DNA of 64,000 nt from Rhina ancylostomus (lineage: Eukaryota), in assembly GCA_030265395.1 (NCBI GenBank), contig JARFYF010000017.1, positions 39,276,767 to 39,340,766 on the forward strand, read 5' to 3'. The position numbers were made by a program, and so were the translations under genes. Below are positions 6,770 to 49,590 of the stretch, in pieces. Position 1 is the first letter of the stretch. Each line of letters begins with the position of its first letter. The notes beneath the pieces were generated by a model. It made no database searches. It was not told the DNA's origin and saw only the letters and a program-made list of their open reading frames with translations.

Positions 6770-6995
6770 CATGACTTGTCCTATTTCCATCTATCTTGGT
6801 CTTTGCACCATCGGTTTTGTCATTTAATCTCTTCTTCCTGCTGACCTTCCTTTTCTTCCCTCTCTATTTTTTCTGTTTTTTAAAACTTATATTATCTATG
6901 ATATTTTCTAGTTCTGATGGAAGGCCATTGATATGACTCAAATTCTCTACAGATGCTGCCTGACTTGCTGAATGTTTCTAGCAGTTTGTTTTCAC
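6770..6995 (+). mobile_element. Penelope-like terminal-repeat fragment, degenerate hammerhead remnant at ~6911-6940
   Basis: ...agttctgatggaagg...acagatgctgcctgacttgctgaatgtttctagcag; same family as 22528-23018. Confidence 0.55.
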
Positions 6996-7576: not shown

Positions 7577-10500
7577 CTAGAAGTTAAAATAACACATTCT
7601 GTGAAATCATCATATCCCATTTAAAAAAAATACTTTAAGTGCAATAGTTGCTGAACCAAGGAGCTGCCAGCAACACCCATCCCCTCCTTCACTACATCCC
7701 AATCGCCCCACCTCCTGTAGACATACTACAGCTGCAAAATCAATCCATTGCCCATCGTTATATTAGCTGCCAGCCCACATCCAACAGGTTCAGATAAAAC
7801 AATTGACAGCTGCTTTGCAGAGAGGAAGTTAGTGAGTCCCTTCCTCCCCCAATTTCCTACACATTAGCTTCCTGAGACCAGATTTTCCAGGAAGGAGGAG
7901 ATAAATACAGTATTATGGAACAACTCATTGGGGCTACTTGAGAAATCTTTCTATGCAGCCAATCTGGTCCTGTGGAAAAAGATTGTCTGTCTGATATAAC
8001 AAGCTGCTTAACCACTCAATAAAAATTCCCCAATTTTCATAATAAGGCATTTTTTTTCCAAGAACAGTTTTTATAAGTTGGTAAATTATAAAATTTTCAC
8101 CCTTTTATTATTTAACATAGTTCATTTTAGTTCCCACACCCACTAGTATTCAGGAGTCACAGACCAGTCAGAACCAACAACATGATCTACCAGAGAGATA
8201 ACTGTGAAACAGACAAGAGTTCACATTATTCAAGGACTGGATCCCATTGCTTGCAACTTCATTGCTCCCTCAGGTGCTGAATACATTTTGCATTTATTGG
8301 TTTCATAAGAACCTTAAGTATTTGTGTTGTGCAGAATATGCCTTACGTTAGAACTCTGCAAGGTCCTTCATTGACCATAGAGTTTTGGGACACCAAGAAG
8401 TCACAAATATACCATGGAATTGCAAATCTTTCTTTCAGAAGGCGACTGATATTCAGCCAAAAGTGATCTTTGCAAGTGCATTTCAGCAGAACTTATGCTT
8501 TAAGAATGGCAAGGAAGGTAATCTTTTTGCAGGCCAATAACTCAGGCAAATACAGCCATTAGCTGACCTGGAAACCTAACATTATGAGTTTGCAAAGCCA
8601 AACGAAAAATCCCTCCACTGACGGATGTTGTAAGATAACCCTAACCCCTACCCTTTCATGTTTATATAGAAAATGAAATAACTCTGCATGGGATTACTTG
8701 AAGTTGCAGCTCAACAAGTTTATCCAGTGAGTTGTTAAACCAACAAGATGTGGAATTAATCATGGGTATGTGCAGAACTAATCACAGCCATTATTACTGC
8801 ATCCCGCTATATGTGCACTTGAGTGGATAGTGGATGAGCTCAGAAGCAGGCCCTATTATAGTGCTCTTGTGGGCAAGATGCTTGTTGACGCTCACCTTCA
8901 AAACTGGCATGTAAAATGACTACTGACCAAGGAGCTTATACTGGCAGTTTGGTCAGTACCCTGAGAAAATAAATATGGAAATGAAGAAAAAGTGCAATGA
9001 TGTAGCATCTTTCATGATATCAAGATGCTGCAAATTGCCTTACAGCAAATGAAGTAATCTAATTAGCATACAGATCCAGCCTAAAGCAAAAAAAGCTCAA
9101 CAGTTAAAATATTAATACCCCCTTCCGGTCTATGTTCCAAACCTTAAATGACAGGATGCTCAATCTGTTCATCCAAGCAATGCTCTACTGATAGTCAGCA
9201 AGTAACATAAGGAAACATCTTAACCTAATCGTCAACACTCTGCACAAAGACAGCAGCTCACACTCATTTCCAAGCTCATCTACTCTTCAAGAGTAAATTC
9301 CAAAATGGACCATTGGTAGTCTACAGTAACTTTTTAACAAGTTATAGGCTGGTTTGGTTTTCCTTGATGCTTAAACAGAACGTGATCCTCCTAAGATCCT
9401 CCTAAATGTTTTACTGAATTACTTGAATATTTATTAACTTAAGATAGTTATTTTTTTATTCTTTTAGTCATTTGAAGATTCATCAGTTAAACATTTAAAA
9501 CAGTTGCAAAACCTGGGAGTAATTATGACATTTTATTGCTTCCTTAAACATATTTAGGGCTAGAAATCATAGAATTTTAATTTCCCTAAGGGTCTAAAGC
9601 AAGACAATCAGAAAGATCTTTGTTCCAGGCTGTGGCTTTAAAAATGCTTTCCTTTTTTCAATAGGAAATGATTCAGAGAGTGAGGAATTAGTTTAAGTGC
9701 AGTAACTGAAGAGTTCATGTCAGTCTGTAAGCCCCTTTAATTTTGCCGACAAGTTCAGCAGGATTTGTTTTGGGACGTATTCATCAGGAATTCCAGTAAA
9801 ATCTCATGTCACTGCAGAAAATGGATATGTATTTTAACATTAATCAACAGTGTTCCCTTCAATATTTATTCATTTGCAATCTGTTCTCCCTCCTCTTCTG
9901 CTCGGGCATCAGGAGCACTGATGGTTAACCTGAGACAGCCCTCTGTAAAGGGTTCTCAATATTGATCACTCTGACAGGATGCACATAGAAGCCACTGATC
10001 GCTAACAAAGAAATCATCCATATTGACACTGTACTTCACTCCTCCCTCCCCACCTCTGAATAATTGTAGCCTCAACAAACCTTCAACTCTGTGGTACAGT
10101 GCACTGGTAACTGGGTATGTTTTGGGAACATCCTACATGGGTTTGTAATTCAAGTACAATGATTTAAATGTTTATACACCATAGAAACAGTAATTTCTTT
10201 GCACGATATTGACCAGTCACTAATGTTGTAATAAGGTAGAAACCAATAAAGCCATGAACATGCCTGTGCAGGGATTCAAAGTCTTTTGGATGAAGCATTA
10301 AATTATGATGTGTCTAGCCTCATGAAGAATACGATCCTCTGGCAGTAATTGAGTAAGTCAGACCTGGTTGTTCAGCTTAACGCTTATTTCTGAACTTGTA
10401 ACACTGAGAAAAAGATATCTTGCTATTATCATTATGCTGTTTGCTGGAACTTGTTATGTGAACATTGTTGTCACCTTTCCAACAGCAATAAACAGACTGC

Positions 10501-10898
10501 AAAATTATGTCACTGGGTAGAAAGTGTTTCAGGCACCAGGAAGTATTATTAACATGAATGTCTTCAATCTTTCAGCCCTACGAGGATGGCGTTAAAATTC
10601 CCAGAATTGCTCAAAACTAAAACACACATTGTTCTTGCTGTTTAGAATGTTAGATCATTCACTGTTTGCAACCCTGCAAACGATAAGGGCAGTGGACTTG
10701 AAGTCATTGTTTGGTGGACAGTAGCACAGGGTAGGTCCAGTGGAAATGCGAAGGGAGTTATTGCCTGGACGAAGACTGTGGGACTACTCCTGGAACATCC
10801 AGTTAAGCAATATTTAGGAAGCAGCTGCTCCAATCCAAAAGTATTGAATCACTGATAAAAAGTACTTCAGCTGTCATCGATCTCCCAGAGTATTGGGA

Positions 10899-11221
10899 GG
10901 GGTGGCGGCAGTGGGTGATGCAGTAGCGCAGCAGTTAATGCTGCTGACCCACAGCTCCCGAGACCCAGCTTTGATCCTGATTTCAAGTGCTGTCTGTGTG
11001 GAGTTTACAAGTTCTCCCTGAGACAACATGGGTTTCTGTGAGTGCTCCAGTTCCCTCCCACATCCCAAAGACTTACTGGGTGGTAGATTAACTAGCTAAT
11101 CTAAATTGCCACCAGGGTAAGTAAGTGGCAGGAGAATCAGGGAGGGGGCAGATGTTGATGAGGATGTGAGAGGAGAGATGAGATTACTTCAGGATTGGTA
11201 TAGGTGCAGTGGGCTGAAGAG
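10899..11221 (+). mobile_element. HE1/V-SINE-type tRNA SINE
   Basis: agtagcgcagcagttaatgctgctgacccacagctccc...tgctgtctgtgtggagttt...gttccctcccacatcccaaagac. Confidence 0.8.
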
Positions 11222-12571
11222 CNNNNNNNNNNATTCCATGATGCTAAAACCATCCAGTGTCCAATAGGCCTTGGAGAAAATGACAGAAACACAGATTGCA
11301 AGGCAATAGGATGTAGCAGCAAGGAAACTGGTTCACCAAGGAAGCCAGTTGACCACCTCGATCTATCAATTTTATTAGATGAGGTTCAATGAAAGGTGGA
11401 GGAAAGGAGAAAAAGGATAGTAATTACGTCTCACTTTTTTATTTATTTCTGTTTGTAGCAAAAGCGTCTCACTGTTACTGGAAGCACCACAGGCCAGAGC
11501 AAAGAAAAGGGGATACCTGGAACCCGAGTAAACAAGACAACCATTTGTGGATTCCCCAAGTCAATTAGACTAAAGAACCATGAAATTAACAGCTAAGGAA
11601 GTGGGGTTGAACTTAATGTCAGATTTGGTACTGAGGCCTAGACATTGCTGTGCCCTCTGAAAGGCACACTCTCGGCTTTCTGAGTAACACACCGACAATC
11701 ATTTTGGATACAGTGGGGGTGAAAGGACACCAGTGTTGGGGAGGAGGGTGGAGAGATTAGCATATCAGAGCTTTCAAAATACTGGGGCTTCTGTCAATCA
11801 GGGTGAGGAGGTCAGTGGTTGGGATGTGACCAATGGGACTTACCCAGATCAGGTCACTGGAGTACCCATGTTTCAATTTGATTTGGAAATGGTCAAAATG
11901 GCATCCAACTCTGGAAAGAGATGCCAACTTTCAGATGCTTAGTGTTGAATTAAAACTGCACAAGGCCTGTCCAAAGCTCCAGTTACAGAGAGACAAAAGG
12001 AAAGAATTGTTGGATAACAGGAAAGAGATGAAAGTGAAAGAAAAATGTTTTAGCTTTTTAAAAAATCTCCAATAAGAATTAACACCTGAAGGAGAGAATG
12101 CACACCCAAAACTGTCCGAGGAGGGTTGGCAGTAATTAACACAGCTCCACGTTCCAGGGTTGGTATCCGCAGCTGTAGACCCATGTGCTGCTCTCCTAAC
12201 TCAGTCTCTGTCATCCCTGCACGATCACAAGGTCTGCTCCTGGCCAATAGATACACTGGCCACACCAGCTGGCTCAGCACCAGGTTTGCCAACAATTGAC
12301 CTGGAATCCTCAGGAGCTTTCCCAACTCCTTATAAGGTGTAGCCCCTGGTACCATCATGCAGAATGCTGCAGAGAGGGGAAGAGCAGTGTGATCCCCCTC
12401 ACCCCATACCCTGCTGTCCCTAGGGCCCCGAACATTCTGGGTCCTGGGGCCAGGGGCCAGACTGGGGCTGGAACCGGGGAATTGGGGATGAAATACAGAG
12501 ACCCATGAACCAAAATGGTTTTGGAGTTCAGATGTAGGCTGCTACCGACTCTAGACACAGACACACTGTAC

Positions 12572-12736
12572 TGGGCACAGGAATGTCACCGTTATAACAG
12601 TGGGGTATAATCCTGTTAGGCATAGGTTTGTCATCATACAACATTGGGACATGCTAGTTTAGGACACAGGCTTGTCACTATATGACACAGGGGTATGATA
12701 CTTGTGGGCACAGGTCTGTCACTGTGTAACCATGGG
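12572..12736 (+). repeat. Degenerate minisatellite, ~44-bp unit x ~3.7
   Basis: Repeated gg(c/a)cacagg.(t)tgtcac.(g/a)tat.aca.(t)ggggta..at unit starting near 12572, 12618, 12662 and 12706. Confidence 0.65.
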
Positions 12737-13019
12737 AAACAGCACTTATAGCCATATATCTCATCTATGTGAAAATGAGGAATTCCCAGAAAAAGCAGGG
12801 CTGTGGGTATTATGAGTGGCAGGAAGCAGATGAAGAAAAACTTAGCTTTTATGTACTTTTCTAAATGAGCCATACTTTAGAGTTTGCCTCTGCCTCAGAA
12901 GCTCCACAGTGACCTTGTGACTGTCGGCTTTTGATTGGATCATTCAAATAAAATCCCTTTCTTCTCAAGAATCAGAGGAAGGCTCAAGTGCTTTTAATAA
13001 GAGCAGGGGAGATTTTTTA

Positions 13020-13196
13020 AAGAAACAAATACTATGGATGCTGGAAACCTGAAATAAGACAGAAAATGCTTTAAATACTCAGCAGCTCAGGCTGCATCTG
13101 TAGACAGAGAAATAGAGTTGACCTGAGTAATTAACTCTGCTTCTCTCTCCTTGGATGCAGCCTGACTTGCTGAGTATTTCCAGCATTTTCTGTTTA
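13020..13196. mobile_element. Palindromic Penelope-terminus-derived MITE-like element
   Basis: acagaaaatgct..aaatactcagcagctcaggctgcatc (13059-13098) is the reverse complement of gatgcagcctgacttgctgagtatttccagcattttctgt (~13154-13193). Confidence 0.75.
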
Positions 13197-13244
13197 AATA
13201 CGAAAATTTCTCACTTCCTCTGGATGAACGTTGCAATCCGTGAA

Positions 13245-13385
13245 CCCATGAACACTACCTCGTTATTCCTCTTTTGCACTATTTGTTTTTGTAACTTGTA
13301 GTAATCTTTACATCTTGCACTGTACTGCGACCACAAAATAACAAATTTCTCAACATATGTCAGTGATAATAAGCCTGATTCAGTA
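13245..13385 (+). mobile_element. Rex1/Babar-type LINE 3' UTR fragment (related copies at ~14480-14600 and ~35310-35395)
   Basis: ttgcactgtactgc...caaaa..acaaatttc..acatatgtcagtgataataa.cctgattc recurs in three places. Confidence 0.6.
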
Positions 13386-13949
13386 TCCCCCTTCACTGAC
13401 ACAAATTGATCCTTTTCTTCTTGCCCTGGGTTTTGTTTTCATCAAATGCACTGGTAAATTTTCCAACTATTCTATTAATATTCTACAAGAAAAAGACATT
13501 GCCTAAATTCCTTAAAGCAAACGTAAAATACTGTAAGGTGCTGTATATCTGAAATCAACAATCTTCAATNNNNNNNNNNNNNNNNNACCAAAGAGCTGTA
13601 ACTTGGTTATTATTAGACTTATAGTTTGCACACTTAACCACTGGAAACTGAACCCCTTTGACAATCTCCACAATTCCTTCTTCCCTCATTACTTCAAGGT
13701 GCAATCCTGCAAAATTTTGAACTCCTTTTTCCATTTAAGTCTCACCATCTAACAATGGTCATTATTGAATTTCATTGCCCCCACCCTCTCTGCCTGTTGA
13801 TGCAACCTCTGGATCACTGCACGTTAGGAAGTGCCCAACTTGCAAATTTAAATTCTTTAAATGAAATTTCATCCTCTTCACTCCTGCATCACCTGCTCAC
13901 ACCGGTACCCTTCGCTATTTTCCTTTCAAACACCTTGCCACATATCTGG

Positions 13950-14290
13950 TGAGGTCTGTTCCCTGGAGTAGGGGAGATTAAGAGGGCACATAATTGAGGT
14001 GTATAAAATTATGAGAAGTATGGATAGGGGAGATCGCAGGGAACTTGCAAAAGTTTTAGAGGGGATCAGGGGGTCTAGTATCACCCAGAGAGTGACGCAT
14101 ACCTGGAATGCACTGCCAGAGAGAGTCGCCAACAGCATTTAAGAAGTGTCTAGATGAGCACTTGAATCACCAAGATAGAGGAAGTTGCAGGCTTCCAAGT
14201 GCTGGAAGATGGGATTAATACAGATGAGTGCCCAGTGGTCAGCATGGACATATTGAGATGAATGGCCTCTTTCCGTGGTGTATGTCTCTT
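13950..14290 (+). mobile_element. CR1 LINE 3' fragment
   Basis: gagattaagagggcacataattgaggtgtataaaattatg...tggaatgcactgcc...tttaagaagtgtctagat (RLRGDLIEVYKI / WNALP remnants). Confidence 0.8.
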
Positions 14291-14722
14291 TAACCCTATG
14301 TTCCATAATCAAAGTCAATCTTATTATATGAAACTGTTTCAAATATTTTTCTGAAATCATTGCAGAAAGCATTTGCTGCCTCCTGACCCTGGAAGCACAC
14401 CAGAAATTAAAAGTATTCCAATAATTTGTACATTTATAATCTGTGCATATGATGACGTTTTCATTCAATTTCTCATTATTCCTTTTATTTGCACTATTTA
14501 TTTATTCTGTAATTTATAGACTATTATAGACTATTGCACTGTCCTGCGGCTGCAAAAACAAATTTCACGTCATATGTCAGTGATAATAAATCTGATTCCA
14601 AAATAGAATTAGAAATTAGTCATTCAATACCAAATGGAAACCACAAATAGTGAAATTCTTAGGAATGCAGCAGAGTCCTTTTTGCTTTATTATTTAAATC
14701 AATAGACTATTCAATCTCTTAC

Positions 14723-15630
14723 CTTTGTAGGTAGTTCCTTTGCTTTAGATTCAAACAAATGTTCTAATTTAGTAGTGTCCACAGTCACTTTATCTAAGGA
14801 AGCCCAGACTGTTCCCCGGCCAAATTTACAGCTCCTGAAAGGGCCTTCTGGTTGCTTTAGTTCCTTCCAGAAGAGCTTAACAGTTTTTCTCTTCTTCGTA
14901 AATGCAGAGCCTGCTCCTTGGGGTGACGATAAATTAGAAGGTGGAGGTGGGGGAGGGAGAGGAGGGCTGGGAACTTGTCCAAAAGATGGTGGCGGTGGTG
15001 GTGGTGGAGGAGGCGGTGAACACCCGGGTGGTGGTGGAGGAGGAGGAGGAGGAGGTGGTACAGGTGGAACCATTGAACTACCAAGTGATGGAACAGCTTG
15101 TTTATCGGCCACACCAGAGTCTGCATCCAAAACATCTATGTCTTCCTCATCTTGAAGGTCTGTGAAGTCTAAATCTTTGATCTTCAGCTCTCTTGGACTT
15201 GCTTCAAGTTGATCCCACATGTATTCAGAGTCTTTCTTCAATGGCATAATTATTGGGGTTTTCTCTACATTCTTCTCATTCAGTTCCGCCTCAATACTAA
15301 ACTGTTCCTTAAAAGCCTTCATCTGAGGTTCAGCAAATTTCTCCAAAGTGGCTTTTACATTCCCAGGGATGCTTTCAATTGCAGGCTTCTTTTGACTTTC
15401 CTCATTCTGATGGATGTCCTGCTTGGAAAAGCGTTTGATCAAGCTCTCAGTGGATTCCATTGAAGCCTCTTCTGCAAATTTCTTCTCACCTGCAGTAGGG
15501 ACCTCCTCCTGGGTTACTTGCAAGTTGCTGGCCTTGGTTTTTGCATACAACATGTCCAGCATGAACTTCTTGTCACTGGAGATTGCACTGCACTGATCCA
15601 AACTGGACTGGCGGATAAGGCACCGACCTG
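14723..15630 (-). CDS. FHOD1: FHOD1 large exon: linker ([19 protein letters not shown]), poly-Pro FH1 and FH2 lasso ([10 protein letters not shown]...[10 protein letters not shown]), 908 nt, phase 1->0
   Basis: ORF 14711..15637; tandem cagcag acceptor; AAG|gtaaga donor; FH1 poly-proline at ~14930-15075. Confidence 0.95.
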
Positions 15631-16281
15631 CTGCCAAACAAAAGAAAACTTAATAATGGCCCTTTTAATGCTCAAAAGCAAATAAAGTGTTTAAAAGAAA
15701 ATGGTGAACAATTGCTTAGTTTTTCAAACTCAAAATAAATTCAGGGTTAACAGTAAAACAATAACTTTTGCTTACTTCTGTGGTGGCTGACATTGGAACA
15801 AACTGCTGAATTTCCGCACGCCACCATTTTGAAGTCAAGGAAGAAAAATAACGCTACTCATCAGAACAGCAGAAGTAATGTGGAAGTGTTGCTGTAAGTT
15901 CCACCCTCTACACTGTGGAGTCCTCAAAGTGAGGAGAAACTAAACAAAGTACAACATTTGTTTTGCACCAAGCAAGAACGTGACCATCAGATCTAAACAA
16001 TTTACATACTTCTTTAACATAAACTTCAAATTACAAGTAATTTACTTTCCCCAAGCTAGGGAGTAGCAACTAAGTGTATTGCCTGGCAAATAGCCAAGAG
16101 GTTTCTTGATCATATCAAAAACCTTCAGTAATTTCAAAAAGCAACAAGTCTCCTTCGTTAATTAACAAAATAAAGCAAAGGCAGGTACAGTGAAGGGGTC
16201 GGAAATCATCATCTAAAAGTTGAGCAGAAGACTTATCTTTTCACAAGTAACTTTTCTCACTGTTTACTGAGGAATGTTTAC

Positions 16282-16515
16282 CCTTATCGTTTGTGAAACT
16301 GTTATCAGCAGATGTTCCTACAGTATGCTCTTGGGGAACGAACGGATGCAAAAAGATGCAATCTTTCTTGCCTGTCTCATTATCGCCCCCCTGTCTGTCT
16401 TCTCTCTCTTCCCTCTCCAACGTACTGCTAGTCGAAGAGCTGCTGGAGGCTGAACATGGTTCTCTTTCATTTAACGCTTCATTCTGTTGCTCCTTTTCAC
16501 TTAGCGCCTCAGTTG
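16282..16515 (-). CDS. FHOD1: FHOD1 linker exon (TEALSEKEQQNEALNEREPCSASSSSSTSSTLEREERE...), phase 1->1; 234 nt with the GT donor or 144 nt (16372-16515) with the GC donor
   Basis: ttctttccag| acceptor; open frame; resembles the FHOD3 NERDNCSASSVSSSSSTLEREE segment. Confidence 0.85.
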
Positions 16516-16879
16516 CTGGAAAGAAGAATGACTCAGTTTACCGAACTTCTGTTATATCTCCGCATATATTTTCAGGAACAGTCATATCCTCCAAAATTAA
16601 CAGTGTGAAAAGAAAACTCAGATGTTATAAACACATGCAAGCCTACATCCTAATATTTCCCAATAGTTCTTTAGACCCAGAAACAACTCAGAATTTATTC
16701 ATCTAACAAACTACTAAAATAGTTGCTGATCAACCAGCATAAATATCCTCAGATGGTTCTGAGTCATACCAATGAACATGTTTCTCAGGTATGGTTACTG
16801 GTCTTGGCATTTAGCTAGACTTAGTTGTGATAACAGTTTGGGTGCAAGAGTTTACCATCAGACAGCCAGTGCAGTATAA

Positions 16880-18250
16880 GAAAAGTAAACAAACTGCAGA
16901 TGCTGGAAATCTGAAACAAAACAGAAATTCCTGGAAACATTCAGCAAGTCACGCAGCACCTGCAGAGACAGTTAATGTTTCCGGTCCAAGACTCCTCATC
17001 AGACCTGGGAAACCATAGAACCATAGAACAATACAGCACAATACAGGCCCTTCAGCCCACCGTGTTATGCCGCCCATCGAACCACACCTNNNNNNNNNNN
17101 NNNNNNNNNNNNNNNNNNNNNNNNNNNNNNNNNNNNNNNNNNNNNNNNNNNNNNNNNNNNNNNNNNNNNNNNNNNNNNNNNNNNNNNNNCCTCCAGCCTC
17201 AAGCACTTACTGCAGATGTGGTCATCGCGGACCACAGCAAGGTCCACGGACTCCCACATCAAACAGGAGAAAACAAGTTTTTAGTAGCAGTGAAGGTAGT
17301 GGGGAGAGATGGATAGAACAAAAGGAATATTTTTGATGGAGTGAGACCAAGTGATTAGTGTGGCAGTTAAATGCATATCATGCTTTTTTGCCAGTGTTGT
17401 GCGTTGCTAATAGCAAGGATATGGGACATGCCCAGCAAGCCAGGCTATACAAAGCACTGAGGCAAAATATGACAGGCAGAAATGGCCAGTTCTGAAAATC
17501 AAAATAAAAATTGCAGATGCTGGAAATCTAATACAGAAAACAGAAAATGCTCAAAATAATCAGCAGGTCAGGCTGCATCTGTGGGAAGAGAAAGAGAGTC
17601 AATGTTTCAGATTGGAGACTGTTTCTCAGAAGTGAAAAGGAGACAAAAGAAGCTTGCAAGGCTGCAGGGAGGGGCTGTCTCTGAGACGGTAAAATTGGGT
17701 GTCCTTCGGGATAAGCTGTAAACAAGGTTATCTGGTCAATGAGTATACGGGAACACTTAGTGAATGAGAATATAAACAAAAGAATGTGCAAGTTGTGAAA
17801 TACAGAACAGAAGGACATGGTCAGCGGGTCAGGCATATCCTGCACTACCTGAGGGAGGAAAAACAATCCGCAGATGCTGTGTTCTGGATCAAAAACATAA
17901 GCTGAAGGAGCAACTCAGTGGGCCAGGTGGCAACTGTGGAGACAATGGGATAGTTGGTGTTTTGGGTGGAGACCCTGCATTAGGGTAGAGATTATAGAGA
18001 GGAGATTGCAAGTATAAGAGGTGAAGGGGAGGGGTGAGACAGGAGCTGGCAAGCAATAGGTGGATCCAGGTGAGGAGAGNNNNNNNNNNNNNNNNNNNNN
18101 NNNNNNNNNNNNNNNNNNNNNNNNNNNNNNNNNNNNNNNNNNNNNNNNNNNNNNNNNNNNNNNNNNNNNNNNNNNNNNNGCAAAAGATGCATATCACTGT
18201 GTGTTTCAATGTACATGTGACTAATAAAGATATCTGATCTGATCTGATCT
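16880..18250 (-). mobile_element. Nested cluster: Penelope-like termini with an inserted CR1 3' tail (~17010-17090) and a LINE tail ending (TCTGA)n at ~18180-18252
   Basis: Repeated cagatgctggaaatct...cagcaggtcaggctgcatc units; accatagaaccatagaacaatacagcaca tail; partly N. Confidence 0.65.
16969..17007 (-). ncRNA. Minimal hammerhead motif variant
   Basis: Minus strand: CAGGT-CTGATGA-GGAGTCTTGGACCG-GAAAC-ATT-AACTG. Confidence 0.55.
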
Positions 18251-19459
18251 GAGGTGAGACAACCTCATTTTGTGTGAGGTGCCAATAGTCAGTAGTCAAG
18301 ACATCACCTATATTCCATGGCATTTGACCTCATATGCCAATAGCTAACTCATTGCACTACCTATTTTACATAGAGAAAAACAACAAGATTTAACCCCTCA
18401 AAAAACACATGTTCCTCTAATCAAATTATTTATTTTTTTCAGATTCTGTATGACAATCCCAATGCCTACAATAAACGAAAGTGTGCCATGTGCCGCAGTT
18501 GACATCGTTTACTAAAACTGTATTCTATATTGCTATAATGTAGCTATATTCCAAGTAATATCAGATTTACTTTCTGTTTGCTTAATTACAAATAGGTCTT
18601 ATTTTAGAAGTTGTGATATGGCTGCTTTATTCCTATTCAATGTAATAGGGAGGAAGAACAGAGCATGAAAATATCATTTTATATTTATGAATATAACGTT
18701 GGATATCCCTTGATTATGGTTGGTAATTGGATTGGATCGTAGCAACCCTGTTACTTTATTGTACTGAGAAATTTAGATCAAACCCCAGGTCCATGGTGTA
18801 GAACACAATCAATATTGCCAAGAATAAAAGAGAAAGTAAGTTAAGACATAGTAGTTTTTTGACAGCAAATGAATTTTAAATATCTCCATATATTTCAGAA
18901 GATTGGAGGAGATATAAAATTCCAATTTTGAGGGATCTAGGAAAGAATCAGTTAAAATTAAATATAAAGCAATGACTCTAGACAGTAATAAAGGGCAACA
19001 GGAAATTTGCAGTCAATATTGTTCTTTCTGAACTGGTTTCATAAATCCCAGCAAAGTAGCTTGCATCTACCAAGACATGTATTTATTCAGGTATCTGTTA
19101 CAAATGTTATCTCTTGTAAGGTAAAATTTGCATGAATGTTTTCACTTGGACAGATAAATGTTAAATGAGATCTATAATTTACATATTGGAACGGGCTCAT
19201 TGCTGAAATTATTAACACCTGTCAAGATGTTGTGTGGTAGTGTGCAACTAACATTTTGAACTACTTATTACAATACCAAGTTTCCATAACAAATTGATGC
19301 AGGTTTTAAAGAAAGCAACAGAGATTTCTGATTGTTAATGTTTTTGGTATACACATAGCATTTCATGTACCTACCAGAGATTTCAATGCAAGGATATCAG
19401 GAGGAATCTGCAAACTCTTGTTGATTGGCACTTGACAAAGAACATGGATCAGAAGATGG

Positions 19460-19870
19460 AAAAGAAACAAGCTGCTGGAGGAACTCAGTGTCTCAAGCAG
19501 GATCTGTGGAGGTAAAGAGAAAGTCAAAGTTTTGGGTCAAGACCCTGCATCAGGACTGAGATTGTAAAGGGGAGTAGCCAGTATACAGAGGTGAGGGGGA
19601 GGGGTGAGGCAGGAGCTGGCAAGCAATAGGTGGATCCAGGTGAGGAGAGGTTGATGGGCAGATGGAGCCAGGTGGAGGTGGGAGGGGTGGAGATAGCGAG
19701 AGAGTCTGGGATGTGAGAGTGGAGACAACAAAGATCTGCAAATAATGGAATCTGATAAGAAAGGAAGGTGGCGAGTGGAACCAGATGAGAGGGGGGTGCT
19801 GGGCAAAAGGGGAACAGAAGGCGGTAAGGGACCAAGTGGGTAAAGCGTGTGGTTGATAAACAGATGAGAA
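19460..19870 (-). mobile_element. Penelope-like element terminal region
   Basis: tgctggaggaactcag...gggtcaagaccctgcatcaggactg; near-identical block at ~17900-18080. Confidence 0.7.
19521..19558 (-). ncRNA. Degenerate hammerhead motif
   Basis: Minus strand: CAGTC-CTGATGC-AGGGTCTTGACCC-AAAAC-TTT-GACTT (core mutated). Confidence 0.45.
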
Positions 19871-22588
19871 AAATATCTATGTACTAACAAAAATCTATCC
19901 ATAACTATGTAATCTCCTGCAGGAAAGTAATACAAAACTTCTAATTGAATCTTGTAAATGGTTATTGAACAAGTTTCAGGATTTCTAAAATAAAAACAGA
20001 AAACTTAGGAAATGCATTGTCCCCTTCTGTAAAGAGTGAGGATTTAATGTAACAATTTAATAATATTTTTACCTATACTTAACATGCTTTACGCCAATGA
20101 CATTCCCAAAGTTCCAAAGGGGACCAGGAACAATCTATTTATTCTTGTTCTTTTCTCTCCTTAAAACCTACCACTTTCACCAAGTAGTGGTAACCTATCC
20201 TGATACCACTTTCTTCTTCTCTGTATCAAATTTTGACTTGTTGAATTAATAAATTATCTGCCTTGAGATATTTCAATATGCTAGAGGTGCAGGTATTGTT
20301 GCTGCCTCTTTCGCATGGCAAGGGAGAGGCTGAGCTGAAATCTCCAGCATTTGGTTTCAATTACCATTGTACTCCATTACTTAGCTGTGTTATTTAGCCT
20401 ACTTATGGCAATACTATCATAACAATAGTAACTTGGATCTTCAGTAGATTTTCATATGGAGTAGCTGAAGGGCATAGGAGTTAAAGAAGTGCCCTCATGT
20501 TTCCTGCCATAGGTCACCTCCATGGACCAGGTAAACTTCGGGTGCTTCTCAGCCCTGACTGGGTCTCACAGTGGCATTAGAACTATTGCCCTGTTAATGG
20601 AAAGCAGCTTACAAAAGACCCCAAAACTCATGGATTAACAGGGTTGGGTGGGGGAGGGAAGTGTAATGATGCAGAAGGTGGATCAACAACACTTGTCAGA
20701 ACATCCCATATAATTCGACTGTCAATCACCACCTGCAGTTTAATTGGCTATCACATCTATAAGTGGCAAAACCTAGACGGTGACGTAGTTGTATCCTCCC
20801 TGGATTCTCAGCTCATTGCTCACAAAGGGTCTCAGCACTGTCCTGTTTGGGCAGGCAATCTCGATATCCTCCTTAACATTCTCTTTCATGGACCTGTGCC
20901 CTTGGTGGCTTATTATTAGACCCTAGTAAAGGAGATCTTATAAGTATCAGTGCTTTCAGTTTCATAAGCATTATCCCTTTGACTTATGGGCATGTCGAAT
21001 ATTAATTCCACCTTAAGAACACAATCAAGAAAATAAGCAAGATGATTTCCCTGCCACAGACCACTCTCTTTGTCTACTGAATGGTAAAATCTGACAAGGC
21101 ACTGATACGGATCTATACACAGAGTGAGAAAGATAGAAAGAGATGAAGAGACAAATCCTCAAAGTAAATTCCAATTTTCTTTGCAGTTAGTCAAATTGCA
21201 GTTTGTTTTTCCTAAATGGGCAATTTGATCTTGCAGAAAAAAATCTTTAAGAAGCTCGAATGTTATTTTTCAATTGGTCTTCGACAAAGTTTGTCGTCAT
21301 GCTTGTTATCATGGAGAGATAATTAGACATTCTTGAAAATCACCATAACTGGTATGCAACCCTTGTGTGACCCCTTAAACTTGCCCTACTATGTACTGTT
21401 CCCATTGCTTATACTTCCAAATATACAAGTGCAGAGCAGTTACATTGCTATTTGTGGTGTGGGAAGGGGGTAAGGTATGAATGCCTAGAGACACAACCAG
21501 ATAATACTGTTTTTGTCTACTCAAGTATTACACAATCAAAAATAGTTCTTTCCTCCCCACCACCCAAGAGTGAAGTGTCATACCAATCATTTCTGAATTG
21601 CTCTGCATCATCCTGGCAATGGGTGCAAGTGTTCCTGACATACAAGGAAACACGTCATTCCCCAACTCCAGCTCTTTTGGACTTTGCAGGGTAAGTTGGA
21701 CCTCACTGTTCCAGGAAGGACCATTGTTGGGCTCTCCCAAGACAATTAGATCTTCCCAGTTCAATGCCGGATTGGTGCCCATGTCAGCTAAGATCCTACT
21801 TGCCTCTAATTATTTCTCACATCTCCTACCAACCTCCGCTGACCCACCCCAGAGGGCCAAGGCCCCAATCTTCCTAGCCTTCTGACCCCCAAATGCCCGA
21901 CCCTATAAATTCCCACCTCCCAACATCATAATACAAGGAGCCTCCCAGCTCCAACTAGTCTTCAGACTACACAAGAATTTCAAAACTGTTGGTCTGCATT
22001 TTTATTTTCTGACTTATAATCAATAATGCCTTATTAATTAGGCTGTTATGGTTAGTTAAGTATCTAAGACTTCAGTTACATCATTAGTGATTTCCGATTG
22101 CAGTCACTGAGCAGAGTCAGACTTAACTGACTTATCTTCCAGACTGAGATGCATCTTTTCAAAGGTTAAAATTACACATCAATGCATAATTGAGCACGAT
22201 ATTCACAATAAAGTTCCAGTCANNNNNNNNNNGATATGCCCAATCTCCAGCATTTCCCATGCTATCATCTCTTGATGGTTGAGTTCAGGGATTTCCCCTG
22301 TTCCTATGCTTACTTCTTCTATGTTCTTCTTCAATCCCATGTGCTCCAATTATGTTTATTAATCTCTTGGGTGGCACCTACAAAGGCCTTCTGAAAGTGC
22401 AAACACACATCCAGTGGTTCCCTTCACTATTCTGGTAGTTATAACGTCAAAAAACCTAACAGGTTTGTTGAACATTATTTCCCTTTCATAAATCCCAATT
22501 GACTCTGCCTAGTCCTTTTATTATTTGAAAAACACGATGATGCTGGAGGAACTCAACAGGCCGGGCAGCATCCGTGGAGAAAAGCAGG

Positions 22589-22626
22589 CGGTCAACATTT
22601 CGGGTCAGGACCCTTCTTGAGGACTG
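22589..22626 (-). ncRNA. Minimal hammerhead motif, mutated core (CUCAAGA)
   Basis: Minus strand: CAGTC-CTCAAGA-AGGGTCCTGACCC-GAAAT-GTT-GACCG. Confidence 0.55.
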
Positions 22627-22908
22627 AAGGTAGGAAAAGGGGGAGCTCAATATATAGGAGGGAAAAGCAGAACAGTGATAGATGGACAAAAGAGGGGAGG
22701 TGGGGTGGGCACAAGATGCTGATAGGTAGATGCAGATAAGAGATAGTGATAGGCAGGTGTGGGGAGGAGGGGAGACCATGCCTCTTCTTGTCTTCCCATT
22801 CTTCTACCCCCCATTTTTCCTCCTTACCTTTGAGCCCAGTGGATCTGCTCTCCCCTCCTCCTCTGTGCCTGCCTATCACTATATTGGGCTTCCCCTTTTC
22901 CTATCTTT

Positions 22909-22946
22909 CAGTCCTGAAGAAGGGTCCTGACCCGAAACATTGACCG
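22909..22946 (+). ncRNA. Minimal type-I hammerhead-ribozyme motif (Penelope-associated)
   Basis: CAGTC-CTGAAGA-AGGGTCCTGACCC-GAAAC-ATT-GACCG: stem I, CUGANGA core, stem II GGGTC/GACCC, GAAA box. Confidence 0.65.
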
Positions 22947-23175
22947 CCTACTTTTCTCCAGGGATGCTGCCTGGCCTGCTGAGTCATCTAGATTCTAGCA
23001 TCTGCAGTCCTTTGTTTCCCTGTTGTTATTTTCCAAGTACCCTGTTCCCACTTCCTAATAATAGATCCTTACATTTTCCCTACTACTGATATCAGTTAAA
23101 CTGGCCTAATTCAGGGTAATTTAACAGGCTACAACATCAATGATTAAATTATGTCAGCAGAAGTGGGTAACTTAC

Positions 23176-23273
23176 CGTCAGGGGTTCTAACCGTGGACAT
23201 CCCATGAGATAAAGATGACTTGTTCACATCCCTCTCTTTTTGCGATGCAACAAGATTTTCTAAAAAGCGATTT
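23176..23273 (-). CDS. FHOD1: FHOD1 exon (NRFLENLVASQKERDV...RTPD), 98 nt, phase 2->1
   Basis: ctctttcag| acceptor, G|gtaagt donor; matches human FHOD1 ARFLENVAAAETEK. Confidence 0.92.
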
Positions 23274-24091
23274 CTGAAAGAGTTATAGCAGCAACTCAGC
23301 ACATATTCAAGCAACCCCAAGATCATTCTGGCAACCTGGACTTGGTTGAGGTCCCAAAAACACTCTAGTTCCACACCCCACTACACCAAACATTAAGTTA
23401 AAGAAATTAAACATTCTCAGAGTAAAGCACTTTTTAAAAATTGTATATATACATTTCAAACATCAATACCATTTACATCAAAGCAGCTCTTTTTTTTCCC
23501 CGCTCACCTTCAAGTGCAAACAGCTGGGAAAAGCCCATCAATCAAAATCAAAATTCATGGGAAGGAAAATATCACCCAATTTCCAAAAACATAACCACCA
23601 TCACACACTCATCGTGGCCCAACCACCATTGCACAATTCCTATTAAGATATTCCACTTATTATAGGCCAGTCACTTGCAAAATAAACATACTTATACACT
23701 GATAGAGCAGGCTGGTTTCTAAAAGAAGTACTGATTGTCAATGAACTTTAAACATGAATGGAAACAATTAATATAATTGGTTTAGTTACAGTGATTTATT
23801 ATAAAAAGCTCAAGATGTGTTTAGTTTTTGCAATATAGAAATCGATACTGGTTTTAGATACAAAGTACCAGCCAACCCAGATTCAAGGAGGACTTGATCA
23901 GTTATCAATGAGAAAAGTTGTTATTCCTTTGTTGGAATAGGATCTGCTCAAATGTCCCAACCTTGCTTAATCTTGTACAGGCCTATAATACCATCACTCC
24001 AAAATTTAGGACCTATAGCAGAAGAGACAAATCGCAAAGCAAACCTAGTGCGGCTTTCAAACACAATCTCCATTCCACAGCCAATACTTAC

Positions 24092-24139
24092 TCATACTTT
24101 TTCAGAACTGGTTTATCCCTAATAGGAATCCTCTCAGCC
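24092..24139 (-). CDS. FHOD1: Candidate FHOD1 cassette exon (AERIPIRDKPVLKKYE), 48 nt, phase 2->2
   Basis: tctttttctcag| acceptor and GA|gtaagt donor, both strong; frame-preserving with no stop. Confidence 0.75.
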
Positions 24140-25713
24140 CTGAGAAAAAGACCAGTTTCAAGACGCATTGTCATTAAGTAGCTGGTAACAAGTCATTAGT
24201 GGTTCTGGGAAAGGTAGATTTATAACAAGATATTAATGACTAATGATTTAATTGTTCTAATATTAAATGAAAGCTTCCCTGAAGCAAGTGGTATAGTTAT
24301 CGTAACAACTGTGCACCCCAGAGGTGTAGCCATTCACTGGCATCGAAGTGCAAAATAATCTTGAAGTGGAAAGGCATCAATCCTTATTTCAACAGGAAAA
24401 GGTATTCACTGTACCTCTGCCTCCTGTCACTCCACCATCTTGTTATACACAAGATATTGGCCAAAGGCAAAAGGATCAGCATTCAAAAATACACCAACAC
24501 TCATCTTTACCTTTATCTTCGTGCTCAGTGTAAAGTTATGCATAGGACAATGGAAAAGGTTAAAGACTTCCAATTCGCTTTACTGAAACTTTGCAGCTTC
24601 CTCTGTACCATCTTTACTACCTGAACCAAATGACGTGCAAACTACAAACTATTGAACTCCAATCTCAATTATCTGCTTCACATTTGGCCTTCTGCCAGAT
24701 TCACGCATTTCATCAGTGAAAATCTCATTTACATCTTCTTCATCCTAAGCTTGATTTCCCCAGTGCTCCCCCCCATTTGTTTCTTAGGCTCCATACTGTT
24801 CAAACCTTAAATTGCCCACAGTTCTGCTCCCTTAATCCTATCCTGTTCTTGGACCTTGTTCACCCATCACCCATCTACCTGCCCCCACTTCTCACTGCTC
24901 CTCTCTCGTGCATCCTCTATTGATCCAGGTTTCTACCATCCTCCTCCTTCATTCCCAAATTCCCGTGGACACCATCTTCCAAAAAAAACAAATCTGTACT
25001 ATTCATTGTGGGGTTTTTCAAATCACCTAATAACATGAAACTACAAATTTAGTTTTCTTTCTGTACATTGTACTTTGTGACATGGCAAGGTTTTACTAAA
25101 ATAATTCATCCCCCAGGTGCGGACTTCTTTGGCAAGCCCAGCATTTATTGCTCTTCTAACTGGCCCCTGAGCAGCTTGCTAATTAATTTCAAAGGACAGT
25201 TAAGAGTCAACTGCTTTACTGTGGGTTGGTCTGAAGCCACCTGTAGGGAGATTTCTGTGCCTGAACTTCATTGGCGAACCAATGGGTTTTTACAACCCCA
25301 GAGCTGCAAGGGCACCATTAGCAGATATTTATTCCATATTTATCTTTTTAATTAAACTTAAATTTGCCATCTGCCATATAAACTCAAGCTCTAAATCATT
25401 AGTCTAGGCTTCTGAACTACAAGCACATAAATGTAACCATAATGCCACTGTACCCCAATTATTGAAGGGGGAAGACTAAATATTAGTCAAAATGTTTTTT
25501 TTAAACTCAGGGTTTCATCTTAACTTGCTTTGATCATTTAAGTGAACATTATTGTCCAACATAGGAGCCCTAAAAATTCATGCTCTGCCAAGCCACCTGA
25601 ATACTAGAAAATGATAGCAGAAACCATGGTTTTGTTAGTAAGGATAATGAGTTTAGAGCACCAACAGGTTGGTATTGAATGGAATAAAAGGTAAAGGTAA
25701 TGTGAAGACGAAC

Positions 25714-30090: not shown

Positions 30091-30674
30091 TATTTTACAC
30101 TCTTAAAATGCAACACAATGTATCTCATCTCTGGATGGAGTTAATAAAGAGAATGTCAACCCCAAATGTCAATTTTAAGTGACATTGGTATTTGTGCCAT
30201 TCAATCTGATTGAAGGCCTACATTTTAACAGGTGGAGTGGGAAAGAAATGTTCATCCCTCTGCCTTTAGCTATCACCATATCTGTGTTGGAATTTGAGCC
30301 AATTACATTTTGCACGTGGAAGTATTGGACTGTTGTGGGGGAGGAGGGGGAGGATTCACCTGTGAGCACAAATGTTATAATTCCTTGGCCATTATCCATA
30401 ATCCTGGGCTATAGGGAATGAATAATTTACTGACTGCGAACCAACTGGAATCCTATGGATATTACAGATGGAAACTACTGAAAAATACAACTACTCACCA
30501 CATTGGAAAATAAAATGTATTTGATACTTACCAGTGAACCTAATTTAAACACACACCATGAACATACCATGGCCCACGAAGAACAGGAGCAATAGAAGGT
30601 CATTCAGCCCCTTTCATCTGCTCTGCCATTCAATAATGCCTTGGCTGATCCAGAACCTGACAAGAAGTCCAGGT

Positions 30675-31295
30675 ACGACCACTGTCGTTGCCAGAATCTC
30701 AGATGGCGATGAAGAGGCATACAAGAGTGAGATAGATCAGCCGATTGAGTGGTATCGCAACAACCGCCTTGCACTTAACATCAGCAAGACCAAGGAATTG
30801 ATTGTGGACTTCAGGAAGGGGAAGTCAGGAGAACACACACCAGTCCTCATTGANNNNNNNNNNNNNNNNNNNNNNNNNNNNNNNNNNNNNNNNNNNNNNN
30901 NNNNNNNNNNNNNNNNNNNNNNNNNNNNNNNNNNNNNNNNNNNNNNNNNNNNNNNNNNNNNNNNNNNNNNNNNNNNNNNNNNNNNNNNNNNNNNNNNNNN
31001 NNNNNNNNNNNNNNNNNNNNNNNNNNNNNNNNNNNNNNNNNNNNNNNNNNNNNNNNNNNNNNNNNNNNNNNNNNNNNNNNNNNNNNNNNNNNNNNNNNNN
31101 NNNNNNNNNNNNNNNNNNNNNNNNGGGCACAACCCTCCCTGCCTTTGAGGACGTCTTCCAGAGGTGGTGCCTCAAGAAGGCGGTGCCTCAAGAAGGCGGC
31201 ATCCATCATTAAGGACCCTCACCATTCAGGACATGACCTCTTCTCATTACTACCATCAGGGAGGGAGGGGGGGGACAGGAACCCGAAGACCCACG
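30675..31295 (+). mobile_element. Rex1/Babar LINE reverse-transcriptase fragment (partly N)
   Basis: TTVVARISDGDEEAYKSEI...LNISKTKELIVDFRK and KAASIIKDPHHSGH.LFSLLPSGR motifs. Confidence 0.85.
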
Positions 31296-31895
31296 GCTCC
31301 ACTTTCCTTAAGTTTACTAGTTCACATTATTCTGAAATTCCTCCTTCAGTAAAGCAGAGTTTTCATTTCAATGAAAAATTAAAGGTGCAAGGAAAACAAA
31401 TCTTTAAACTCACCTAGATTTATGCAAGAATTCTGCCCTCTCTGGTGCAGAAGTTCTCTGCACTGTCCCAGCTTATATCTAGCCATCTACTAATATCACT
31501 ATATCTGTTTATCTGGCTTCTACAACATTGTTGTGTGTGGGACTGATCTGTGCACAAATAAGTTTCCTATATTCCTAAAGCTACGGAGGCCCCAAATAAA
31601 TTGCAAGATTTTCTTTTGCTTTAGCAAAGCTTGGAAGAGTCTATTCTATGTAAATGTGCTGTGTTACCTAGTGAAAATATTTTTTTCCGATACAATGCTG
31701 AACACTACATTAAATCAACATAAAGGATGAACATTTCTGTCAGTTAAGAATGCTAATAATTGCCTTTACAACACAAGCTGATCAGAGCCCTTTATGATTT
31801 CCAAATACATTTCGTAGATGGGTTCAGAAAAATGGTGCATATGGCATCTTGTTTTCACATTCCAATATGTTCAATGATTTTCCCATAATCATCAG

Positions 31896-36859: not shown

Positions 36860-39030
36860 CACACCAAGGTCTCTCTCTGAACACTAACATTTCTCATTTT
36901 CTCAACATTTATAAAGATGCTCTGCTTTTCATGATCTCTCCCAAAATGGATGGCTTCACATTTTTCCACATTATATTCAATTTAGCACACTCTCGTCCAT
37001 TTACTTAGCCTGCCAGTGCACTCTTGAAGCCTTTCTGCATCTTTCCCACAGCTCATGGAGCTGGGTGACACCGTGGTGCAGCTAGCAGAACTGCTGCTGC
37101 ATAGCTCCTGTGACGCAGGTTCAATCCTGAACTCTGCTGCTGTTTCTGTGGATTTTCCATATTTTCTGTGAATGCATAGGTTTCTTCTGGGTGCTCCGGT
37201 TTCCTCCCACATTTCAAAGATGTGCATGTTGCCGCATTACTTGGCCACTGTAAACTGCTCCTTGTGTGTAGGTGACTGGTAAAATCCAGGAAAGAATAAT
37301 GGGAATATGGGGACAATAACATGGGATTAGTGTAAGTGGGTGCTCAGAGGTTGGCACAGGCTCAGTGGGCCGAAGGGCCTGTTTATGTGCTGTATGACTC
37401 CCTAGTTCTATGACTCATATAGCCACCCAGCTTTGTGTCATTGGCAAAACTTGGATACATTACAAATAAAATCAGAAAGTGCTGGAAATACTCAGCAGGT
37501 CAGGCAGCATCCATGGAGAGTTATGCAGAGTTATAGTTTTAGATGAATGAATTTTCATTGGAACTGGGAAAAGTTGGAAATTAAACAAAGTTCAAGTTGC
37601 AGAGAAGGGGAAGGGGTGGAGAGAGGGCAGAGAGGGTGATGGGGCTCTCTGCAATAGGGCAGAGAGTGATGCCAAGTGCCAGTGGTGTCAGGTGAGAGAC
37701 GTGATGAGGACTTGCAAACCACAACTAATCTGTCTGGAGAAGAGAAATGAGAATAGAGGAGAGAAGAAAAGTAAATGGCTGGGACTGTGAGATACAAAAC
37801 ATTGCAATTGCTGCAAATCTGAAATCAAAGAAAGTGCTGCATATATGCAGTGTCAGGCAGCATCTGTGGACAGAGTTTAAAAACAGAGTTAGACTTACTG
37901 ATTGACCAGTTCTGATCAAGCTAGAAAGGCTAGTTATTTGAAATATTTTACAGGCTCTTTAGCCCTTCAAGTCTCTGCCAACCTTCAAGTATCTATAGCA
38001 ATTCCATTTTCCAGATTCTGCCCTTAGCCTTCTATGCCATAACTTTTTAGGTGCTCATTTGAGTAAATCTTTGTTGATGTTGTCTAACCTGCTGAGTTCC
38101 CAGCATTTTTGGGGTTCTTTTTTCTGGACTTCTAACAACCACAGTTCTTTTTTTGCATTTAGATATATTACACTCAATCCCCTCATCCAAATGATAGCAG
38201 ACTGGCAGGGCCACAGTCCTGATTACTGTGGCACTATACTTGTTACAACCTCTCAGAAAAATGACCTATTTATTTCTACCGTTTTCTATCTATTAATCAA
38301 TCCTTTAACCACACTGGTATATTACGCTCAATCCCATGTGTTCTAACTTTATTAAATAACCTCTCCCATGACATTTTACAAGGCCTTCTGAAAATCCCAA
38401 TGCACCACATGCACTGATTCCCCCTTATCCATTCAGCTCATTGAGACATAAAAACAAAATTAACAGATTTATCAAGTTTGATTTCCATTTGATAAGTCCA
38501 TGTTGATTATGCACAGTCATATTTCTAAGTGCTCTGTATCACTTCCTTAACAATATGTTCTTGTATTTTTCCTGCTACTGACATTCAGCGAACTACAATG
38601 AAGCTCCAGCTATCTAATTGTTCAGATATCCTGATGGTTCCACATCTGACTCACGGAGTCTTGATTCTCTCCAACACACCGGGGTCCTGGCTCCCATGTT
38701 CCTTTAACGCACTGAGGTCACAGTTCCTGGGCTCCCTTGAAAGTTACCAGGTTCATTGGAAAATTTGTTTTACGACCATACTATGTAACAATTTAAAAAA
38801 AATTAGGAATGTTGGAATATTAATTGTAATAATATCCAATAGTCTAGAACATCTGTCAGTTCAGTATTATCAAAGTCCTGAGTAAATTAGTGGAGTTTTA
38901 GTATGGTCTGCATTTTTCTCTTTCCCTCCTTCTTAAATAGTGGGCTTACATTTGCTACCTTCACATTTGTCAGAACTGTTCTAGTATCTTTGGAATTTTG
39001 GAAGATGCCAAACAGTCTGTCCACTATCTG
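36860..39030 (-). mobile_element. Fragmented CR1 LINE interrupted by SINE and Penelope-like inserts (~37460-37910)
   Basis: Reverse complement shows DAERLQEC..RLSKW, KFANDTK(LGG) and GFSEGLVK/DFQKAF-type RT remnants. Confidence 0.65.
37062..37412 (+). mobile_element. HE1/V-SINE-type tRNA SINE inserted in a CR1
   Basis: ggtgacaccgtggtgcagctag...ggttcaatcctga (B box)...gggtgctccggtttcctcccaca...gggccgaagggcctgttt. Confidence 0.85.
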
Positions 39031-47654: not shown

Positions 47655-47815
47655 AACCAACTGCAAATATTAGAAATCTGAAATAATAACAGAAAATGCT
47701 GAAGGTACTCAGCAGGTTGGGCAGTATCTGTCAAGAAAGAAACAGTTAATGTTCTGGGCTGAAGATCCAATGTCAATCCTGATGCGATGCCTCCAGCATT
47801 TTGTATTTTTATTCC
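47655..47815. mobile_element. Short Penelope-like terminus fragment
   Basis: aaatctgaaataataacagaaaatgctg...cagcaggttgggcagtatctg. Confidence 0.55.
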
Positions 47816-49274: not shown

Positions 49275-49590
49275 AAAAACAACAAGATGCTGGAGAAACT
49301 CAGCAGGCCAGGCAGCATCCATGGAGAAAAGCAATCAATGTTTCGGGTCAGAACCCTTCTTCAGGACTGAAGATAGGAAAAGGGGAAGCCCATTATATAG
49401 GAGGGAAAAACAGAGCAGCGATAAGTGGACAAAAGAGGGGAGGTGGGGTGGGCACAAGGTGGTGATAGGTAGATGCAGGTAAGAGACAGTGATAGGCATT
49501 TGTAGGGGAGGGGAGGAGAGCAGATCCACCAGGGGATGGGTCAAAGGTATGGAGGCTGGCGGCATGGGGGGAGGGGACGAGAGGAAAAAA
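49275..49590 (-). mobile_element. Penelope-like terminal repeat; close paralog of 22530-22770
   Basis: Near-identical sequence (ggacaaaagaggggaggtggggtgggcacaag...) and matching ORF-track pseudo-translations. Confidence 0.8.
49332..49369 (-). ncRNA. Minimal hammerhead motif, CUGANGA and GAAA boxes intact, sense to FHOD1 pre-mRNA
   Basis: Minus strand: CAGTC-CTGAAGA-AGGGTTCTGACCC-GAAAC-ATT-GATTG. Confidence 0.65.

Follow-up and report, generated by a model that had tools for sequence, protein, structure and literature searches.

A Head-to-Head Pair of 5'-Truncated Penelope-Like pLTRs, Very Probably a Single Old Insertion, in an FHOD1-Like Intron of Rhina ancylostomus

Introduction

In EN+ Penelope-like elements (PLEs), a truncated copy lies next to an adjacent, inverted and likewise truncated one, with a tail of 30-40 bp on one side only (PMC8557442), and inverted pLTRs with target-site duplications (TSDs) of 9-10 bp have also been described (PMC3846280). 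A CX2-5CxxC linker before the GIY-YIG endonuclease is the mark of Neptune and Nematis elements (PMC8557442). The promoter of the Drosophila virilis Penelope is reported to be internal and TATA-less (PMC2377424), and a pair of TATA and Inr motifs in the pLTR has already been proposed for rotifer Penelope (PMC3846280).

The minimal hammerhead motifs of PMC4209133 are mostly solo, with opposite-strand pairs lying 100-700 bp apart, and they occur in fish Neptune elements. Monomers did not cleave and dimers cleaved at a low level (PMC4209133). Sharks and rays go unnamed in the accessible text of that paper, whose supplement may list chondrichthyan motifs. For Poseidon PAc of Anolis, the purified protein cuts the two target strands, extends both and reverse transcribes from two internal starts that bound the tail; unprocessed RNA is the dominant template and, according to the accessible part of the report, reads do not end at the cut site of the hammerhead (PMC11167929). 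Animal non-LTR retrozymes are short, non-coding, PLE-derived sequences with a type-I hammerhead; they form head-to-tail tandem units, each with its hammerhead, and circular RNAs, and they have been reported in one chondrichthyan (PMC7229834, bioRxiv 10.64898/2026.07.22.740005).

Here we describe a fold-back insert in the genome of Rhina ancylostomus. It shares with the Neptune units of EN+ PLEs the 5'-truncated copy with an inverted truncated neighbor, the tail of 30-40 bp at one end and the TSD; the CxxC linker before a C-terminal GIY-YIG, the TATA- and Inr-like motifs of the pLTR and the internal deletions are likewise the same (PMC8557442, PMC3846280). Unlike in those units, as far as they are described, both copies of the locus are truncated inside the pLTR with no ORF left, and the family reaches a very high copy number, about 200 per Mb. 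Compared with the motifs of PMC4209133, helix II has only 4-5 bp here, and at the locus one of the cores and both palindromes are mutated.

Materials and Methods

The window is the whole stretch analyzed, 64,000 nt of contig JARFYF010000017.1 (GCA_030265395.1, positions 39,276,767 to 39,340,766), and coordinates below refer to it. Family positions are counted with +1 at the A of TCAGTC. An unbiased sample was made up of 134 segments, each 10 kb long and placed at a round coordinate of a large contig (1,134,850 non-N bases). For the subfamily set, we searched with three 34-nt patterns, matched exactly and placed entirely 3' of the hammerhead cut site (2,320, 1,087 and 1,095 matches), of which the first 30 matches per pattern, on one contig, were analyzed (n = 90), including about eight pairs of copies that represent both arms of a single insertion. 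The assembly contains gaps: of the 90 sampled subfamily copies (L215-L304), 33 end in N, running into a gap at the 5' side, in many cases inside the hammerhead region. This suggests that near-perfect fold-backs break the assembly.

Results and Discussion

Structure of the locus

Based on our data, the locus is very probably a single old insertion in which two 5'-truncated Neptune-type Penelope-like pLTRs are joined head to head, flanked by target duplications of 12 bp; it was likely made by nicking of both strands and double priming of reverse transcription (RT), and its hammerheads are predicted to be inactive here. The insertion spans 22526-23018 (493 bp). Its parts and surroundings are the following.

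22331..22525, minus strand: older LINE RT fragment, the insertion target, resuming after 23030
22514..22525, plus strand: left TSD copy, 12 bp, two mismatches to the right copy; single in empty LINE sites
22526..22778, minus strand: left arm, 5'-truncated pLTR, family positions -154 to +100, without tail
22589..22626, minus strand: remnant of a minimal hammerhead, its core broken (CUCAAGA, G5 to C) and its stem III altered by CpG decay (AUGU)
22649..22656, minus strand: TATA-like box (TATATATT), its start 31 nt upstream of the A (22625) in TCAGTC, with a putative promoter role
22775..22778, no strand: head-to-head junction, the arms overlapping by 4 nt
22775..23018, plus strand: right arm, 5'-truncated pLTR, family positions -245 to +132
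22909..22946, plus strand: minimal hammerhead motif, CUGAAGA and GAAA boxes intact, AUU triplet, putative cut after 22941
22985..23018, plus strand: PLE tail, about 34 nt, right arm only, as described in PMC8557442 and PMC11167929
23019..23030, plus strand: right TSD copy
23176..23278, minus strand: FHOD1-like coding exon, 5' splice site GTAAGT at 23175

The LINE fragment that received the insert is, as we take it from its motifs, CR1-like. Three of the six homologous LINE sites found cross the insertion position (L148, L165 and one at 38.3 kb of the window) and carry the TSD stretch once; since the stretch is single in these empty sites and present on both sides of the insert, the whole insert goes back to one insertion event. 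A LINE-like RT fragment with an assembly gap inside was also seen at 30549-31417.

The left arm is 94.9% identical to the subfamily majority (13 mismatches in 253) and the right arm 91.4% (21 in 243), the latter also having lost 91 nt at 22879/22880 and 23 nt at 22983/22984. No derived changes common to both arms were found when they were compared. A cluster in the right arm, from CACA to TGTG, looks like a micro-inversion. The inverted outer arms of the preliminary description were recovered at 22551-22654/22880-22984 (105 nt, 89.5%). Its inner inverted pairs are present, at 22743-22757/22868-22882 and 22763-22778/22846-22861, but they are not a separate feature: inner and outer pairs are a single homology, which the 91-nt deletion of the right arm interrupts.

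The 493-nt insert folds at -279 and -265 kcal/mol on its two strands (z -16.5 and -16.2), and none of 100 shuffles was as stable on either strand. In the predicted fold the hammerhead bases pair with the far arm (P 0.92-0.97), stem II having a probability of 0.0. A candidate ADAR scar was rejected, with A>G in six and T>C in four of 34 plus-strand arm mismatches and thus no one-strand excess.

Insertion mechanism

Such a structure could arise as follows. The target would be nicked on both strands with a stagger of about 12-13 nt; one cDNA would begin at the inner RT start and the other at the tail end; both would stop early and then be joined head to head over a short overlap, and about 5-9% of neutral decay would follow. 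The TSD of the locus is imperfect, with two mismatches in 12, and the double priming is what we infer from the outer ends, which fall in two 3'-end classes of the family, each abutting a TSD copy. An unlikely, though not negligible, alternative is that the inverted arm came from self-priming or template fold-back in one round of RT, without priming at a second nick. Self-priming was proposed for rotifer Penelope from palindromes at the junctions (PMC3846280), and the 4-nt overlap of the arms at our junction agrees with it. The junction is, however, without a long palindrome, and outer arm ends that sit at the two family 3'-end clusters, each against a TSD copy, fit independent priming better. 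Double priming also has a parallel in Poseidon PAc of Anolis, where two RT starts likewise bound the tail and both strands are cleaved and extended (PMC11167929).

A Penelope family of probable Neptune type

The Penelope origin proposed in the preliminary description was confirmed, as longer copies carry GIY-YIG, the CxxC linker and RT upstream. Upstream of the pLTR, many copies continue into the C-terminal part of a GIY-YIG endonuclease. Of six longer loci that we extended, three (L077-L079) run from GIY-YIG into RT on one strand, adjoining the pLTR; RT motifs were seen in L075-L079, upstream of the endonuclease and on the same strand, and in L078 and L080 the linker before GIY-YIG reads CPCHRCNTC, which corresponds to CX2-5CxxC. 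The Pfam matches to GIY-YIG (PF01541, E 8.7e-4) and RVT_1 (PF00078, E 2.6e-3) both fall below the curated cut-offs, which is explained by the shortness and decay of the fragments; two short GIY-YIG fragments gave nothing in Pfam and a third gave chance matches only. Homologues in the whale shark, stingray and skate carry PF26215 or PF00078. The family would thus be of Neptune type, an assignment made by motif and host range rather than by tree. A full-length, intact element was not encountered in the assembly. A stingray protein annotated as a kinase isoform includes the endonuclease of the element (P0003), through exonisation or mis-annotation.

A profile search of the unbiased sample returned 229 copies in 1.135 Mb, and none in the reversed sequence. 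Extrapolated roughly, and from large contigs only, the genome total would be some 380,000 copies and 72,000 fold-backs. Among 64 neighbor pairs within 600 bp, 44 are head-to-head, six tail-to-tail and 14 tandem (p 2e-13 against one in four), and 33 of the 44 fold-backs have a tail on exactly one arm (p 6e-4). Head-to-head is the commonest paired layout in this genome, and the layout itself is already published.

In the subfamily set, an inverted partner was found at 43 of 90 loci, with a single tail in 34 of the 43. The 3' ends of the 90 loci are bimodal, at +100-105 and +135-137, and the two arms of our locus sit one at each. TSDs of 10-20 bp (mode 13) were detected in 22 of 63 testable loci, as against 0 of 400 controls with mismatched flanks.

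Other copies occur in the window. Further pLTRs of the same and older subfamilies lie at 49275-49555, 19461-19664, 17861-17984, 17512-17636, 16893-17008 and 47649-47758 on the minus strand, and at 37468-37519 and 6941-6992. The stretch 13037-13195 looks like another short head-to-head pair, and an inverted pair of 234 nt (82%) at 57770-58000/58533-58766 falls outside the family profile matches. Elsewhere in the genome, one family fold-back (L043:1-970) adjoins other sequence, which presumably resembles the RT/RNase H region of an LTR retrotransposon.

The hammerhead of the family and of the locus

The consensus that the preliminary description derived from a few copies, CAGTC CTGAAGA A GGGT CCTG ACCC GAAA CGTT GACCG, was found to be the majority of 29 genomic copies, with ACGT intact. 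It has what a minimal type-I hammerhead is expected to have at the sequence level, that is, CUGANGA, GAAA, NUH, helices I and II and the palindromic 15.2-16.2, and the family may be assigned to that class. In the 98 copies that cover the motif, the core boxes prevail as the majority sequence, and position 17 is U or C in 91. Pair I.1 of the stem is C-G in 35 of the 98 and U-A in 23, a switch tied to one subfamily and therefore one compensatory event, and in the other stem pairs there is either almost no variation or a signal obscured by CpG decay. Subfamily copies that span the motif keep both boxes in 18 of 50 cases, and ACGU as well in seven. A two-molecule fold of the consensus gave no active dimer fold, a fold that the energy model cannot score. 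In a random sample (L081-L214), non-canonical cores were seen to have been amplified: CUGAUGC, with C at position 9 in 20 of 98 copies, and CAGAUGA, with A at position 4 in 21 of 98. Subfamilies with these cores spread despite their departure from the textbook core.

At the locus itself, the preliminary description saw CUGANGA and GAAAC in each arm. This stands for the right arm, which reads CTGAAGA A GGGT CCTG ACCC GAAA C ATT GACCG, but not for the left one, which has CTCAAGA and GAAAT. The ATT and GAAAT variants are indeed accounted for by CpG decay. Stem III of the right-arm motif has lost its palindrome (ACAU), and neither arm keeps ACGU. A bare CTGANGA-N(8-30)-GAAA pattern occurs in the window at the level of chance (seven against 5.7 expected), and an Rfam scan of the window had no match at gathering score; therefore the reality of the motif rests on the family. 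Over the locus, Rfam at E<=10 gave 15 weak matches, the hammerhead model not among them; the generic hairpin models, all sub-threshold, were dismissed as chance.

The same description expected a hammerhead whichever strand is read. This does not hold: each strand has a single sense copy, that of the minus (pre-mRNA) strand is the core-mutated one, and the arms pair with each other. As to dimers, the left core is mutated, both palindromes are lost, and the arms are opposed and mutually paired. With one sense copy per strand, a broken pre-mRNA copy and motif bases paired with the far arm, cleavage is predicted not to occur at the locus on either strand, as judged from sequence and folding. The motifs of the locus are inherited family cargo.

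Ends of the copies and the template RNA

The 5' ends of family copies are far from evenly placed. In the subfamily set, 22 of 57 ungapped copies end between -5 and +10, where the per-base stopping rate is 6.3 times that elsewhere (p 3e-9); in a simulation of uniform truncation this interval received 5% of the calls, against 8% expected. The pile-up is present in solos alone (10 of 25, 6.4-fold, p 6e-5), and 12 of 32 fold-back arms end there. No significant excess was found at the hammerhead cut site: four ends fall at +30 to +33 and 11 in the remainder of +11 to +41 (p 0.15), and none of the 25 solos ends at the cut site.

In the subfamily, TATATATT starts at -31. TCAGTC, which we take to fit the Inr consensus, is found at 22625 of the locus, where it doubles as the 5' strand of stem I of the hammerhead. 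Positions -31 to -24 are likewise A/T-rich in 17 longer copies from several subfamilies, chosen on upstream pyrimidine content and AG at +1/+2. The simplest reading is that the template RNA is short, initiated in the pLTR at +1, and uncleaved. In its full form, to which we give even chances, the proposal is that a TATA-Inr promoter in the elasmobranch Neptune pLTR starts transcription at the 5' strand of stem I, and that the RNA so produced, ~100-135 nt long and uncleaved, is copied in trans, in the manner of a SINE, as solos or mirror pairs, making up a large share of the ~380,000 copies. If so, copy ends would map the transcription start together with the two RT starts, and the ribozyme would be shown in vivo not to produce the template's 5' end.

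A rival reading of the pile-up takes the same bases as a 3' splice site, with branch point, pyrimidine tract and CAG acceptor. It has a precedent in D. virilis, where an intron of Penelope ends at helix I (PMC4209133). Copies that start near +1 are, however, without a common upstream exon, and an excess of starts is already seen at +4 to +10 (p 0.001), as expected just short of the 5' end of a template. An uncleaved template also agrees with the dominance of unprocessed RNA in Poseidon PAc, an element that differs in belonging to the Penelope/Poseidon clade and in having an ORF that starts in stem II; no 5'-end pile-up at stem I is reported in the accessible text on it (PMC11167929).

RNA reads (the organism at a word share of 0.10) on a family copy numbered 9,154-25,373 and covered both strands, with no pile-up of beginnings or ends, fragmented libraries being such that they cannot show a start. 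In the literature covered, mostly outside subscription journals and supplements, we found no paper dealing with Penelope hammerheads of sharks or rays, nor any that describes a pile-up of 5' ends at stem I. Both arms of our locus reach upstream of +1; they therefore derive from a longer RNA and do not belong to the short class.

The insert within the host gene

The preliminary description placed a long hairpin inside FHOD1 pre-mRNA, and exon translations and folding agree with a hairpin in an FHOD1-like intron. The translated exons match FH1/FH2 formins, best those of rays (84% Hemitrygon, 82% Rhinoraja, 79% Narcine). The close matches are mostly annotated as FHOD1, the top one as FHOD3, so the gene is named here by its matches and not by a tree; PDB sequence searches gave it no name. 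Within the intron that follows exon 23176-23278 and runs to about 16516, the insert is found 157 nt from the 5' splice site. In the FHOD pre-mRNA it would form a long duplex burying the only sense-strand hammerhead, the broken one.

Could this hairpin have been co-opted in FHOD1 RNA processing, as an ADAR or Drosha substrate or by modulating the splicing of the exon 157 nt away? We consider this very improbable. A strong duplex near a 5' splice site invites the idea, as do two sites on the pre-mRNA strand, a donor-like AAG/GTAAGG at about 22826 in the antisense right arm and an acceptor-like pyrimidine-CAG at about 22624 in the left arm. Yet about 70,000 similar fold-backs exist by extrapolation, and the arms have deletions and 5-9% of scattered changes, none of them shared. 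The donor-like (22822-22831) and acceptor-like (22622-22640) sites are about 200 nt apart, and the antisense family sequence also has CAG/GTAAGA.

The fold-back is not an amplified unit

With the locus as query, 6,941 first-look candidates were obtained and the best 40 scored; all 39 other places among these match the left arm as a unit (query about 1-251). A distinct non-autonomous fold-back family, as first suggested, would share the internal junctions among its members. Both junctions are instead absent from other family copies, the best relatives matching one arm each, and the many dispersed copies with identical internal junctions of a MITE-like amplified fold-back were not found. A locus with a near-identical 91-nt deletion (L035:1446-1587) has two mismatches at the junction, TAT microhomologies and no matching inversion; this deletion may recur or mark a small subfamily. 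The name retrozyme-like does not suit the locus either, whose arms are inverted: in retrozymes, units that each carry a hammerhead are repeated head to tail in tandem, and ours is one inverted pair (PMC7229834, bioRxiv 10.64898/2026.07.22.740005). A direct pLTR within 700 nt upstream was found in only seven of 90 subfamily copies.

In another view the complete fold-back would be the unit of a non-autonomous, retrozyme-like family, being transcribed, processing itself and inserting again as one piece. This view is very improbable and largely refuted: although one TSD bounds the insert as a whole and L035 has approximately the same internal deletion, the deletion junction matches only itself (one match at <=1 mismatch), the inversion junction has two matches at <=2 mismatches, the second without family sequence and in a search where a control pattern gave one match, none of the 39 other top-scoring places has both arms as one match, junctions vary among fold-backs, and there are neither tandem units nor a one-strand A-to-G excess.

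Significance

The locus is a decayed, ordinary PLE insertion of a kind already known, and it has little weight alone, being one among tens of thousands of such stubs. Taken together, fold-backs supply this genome with long inserts able to form duplexes, at about 40 per Mb, a load of relevance to RNA editing and to the gaps of short-read assemblies in sharks and rays. The ends of the copies are a genome-scale record of the poorly understood Penelope replication cycle; they agree with the two internal RT starts and the uncleaved RNA seen in vitro, and they point to a testable promoter.
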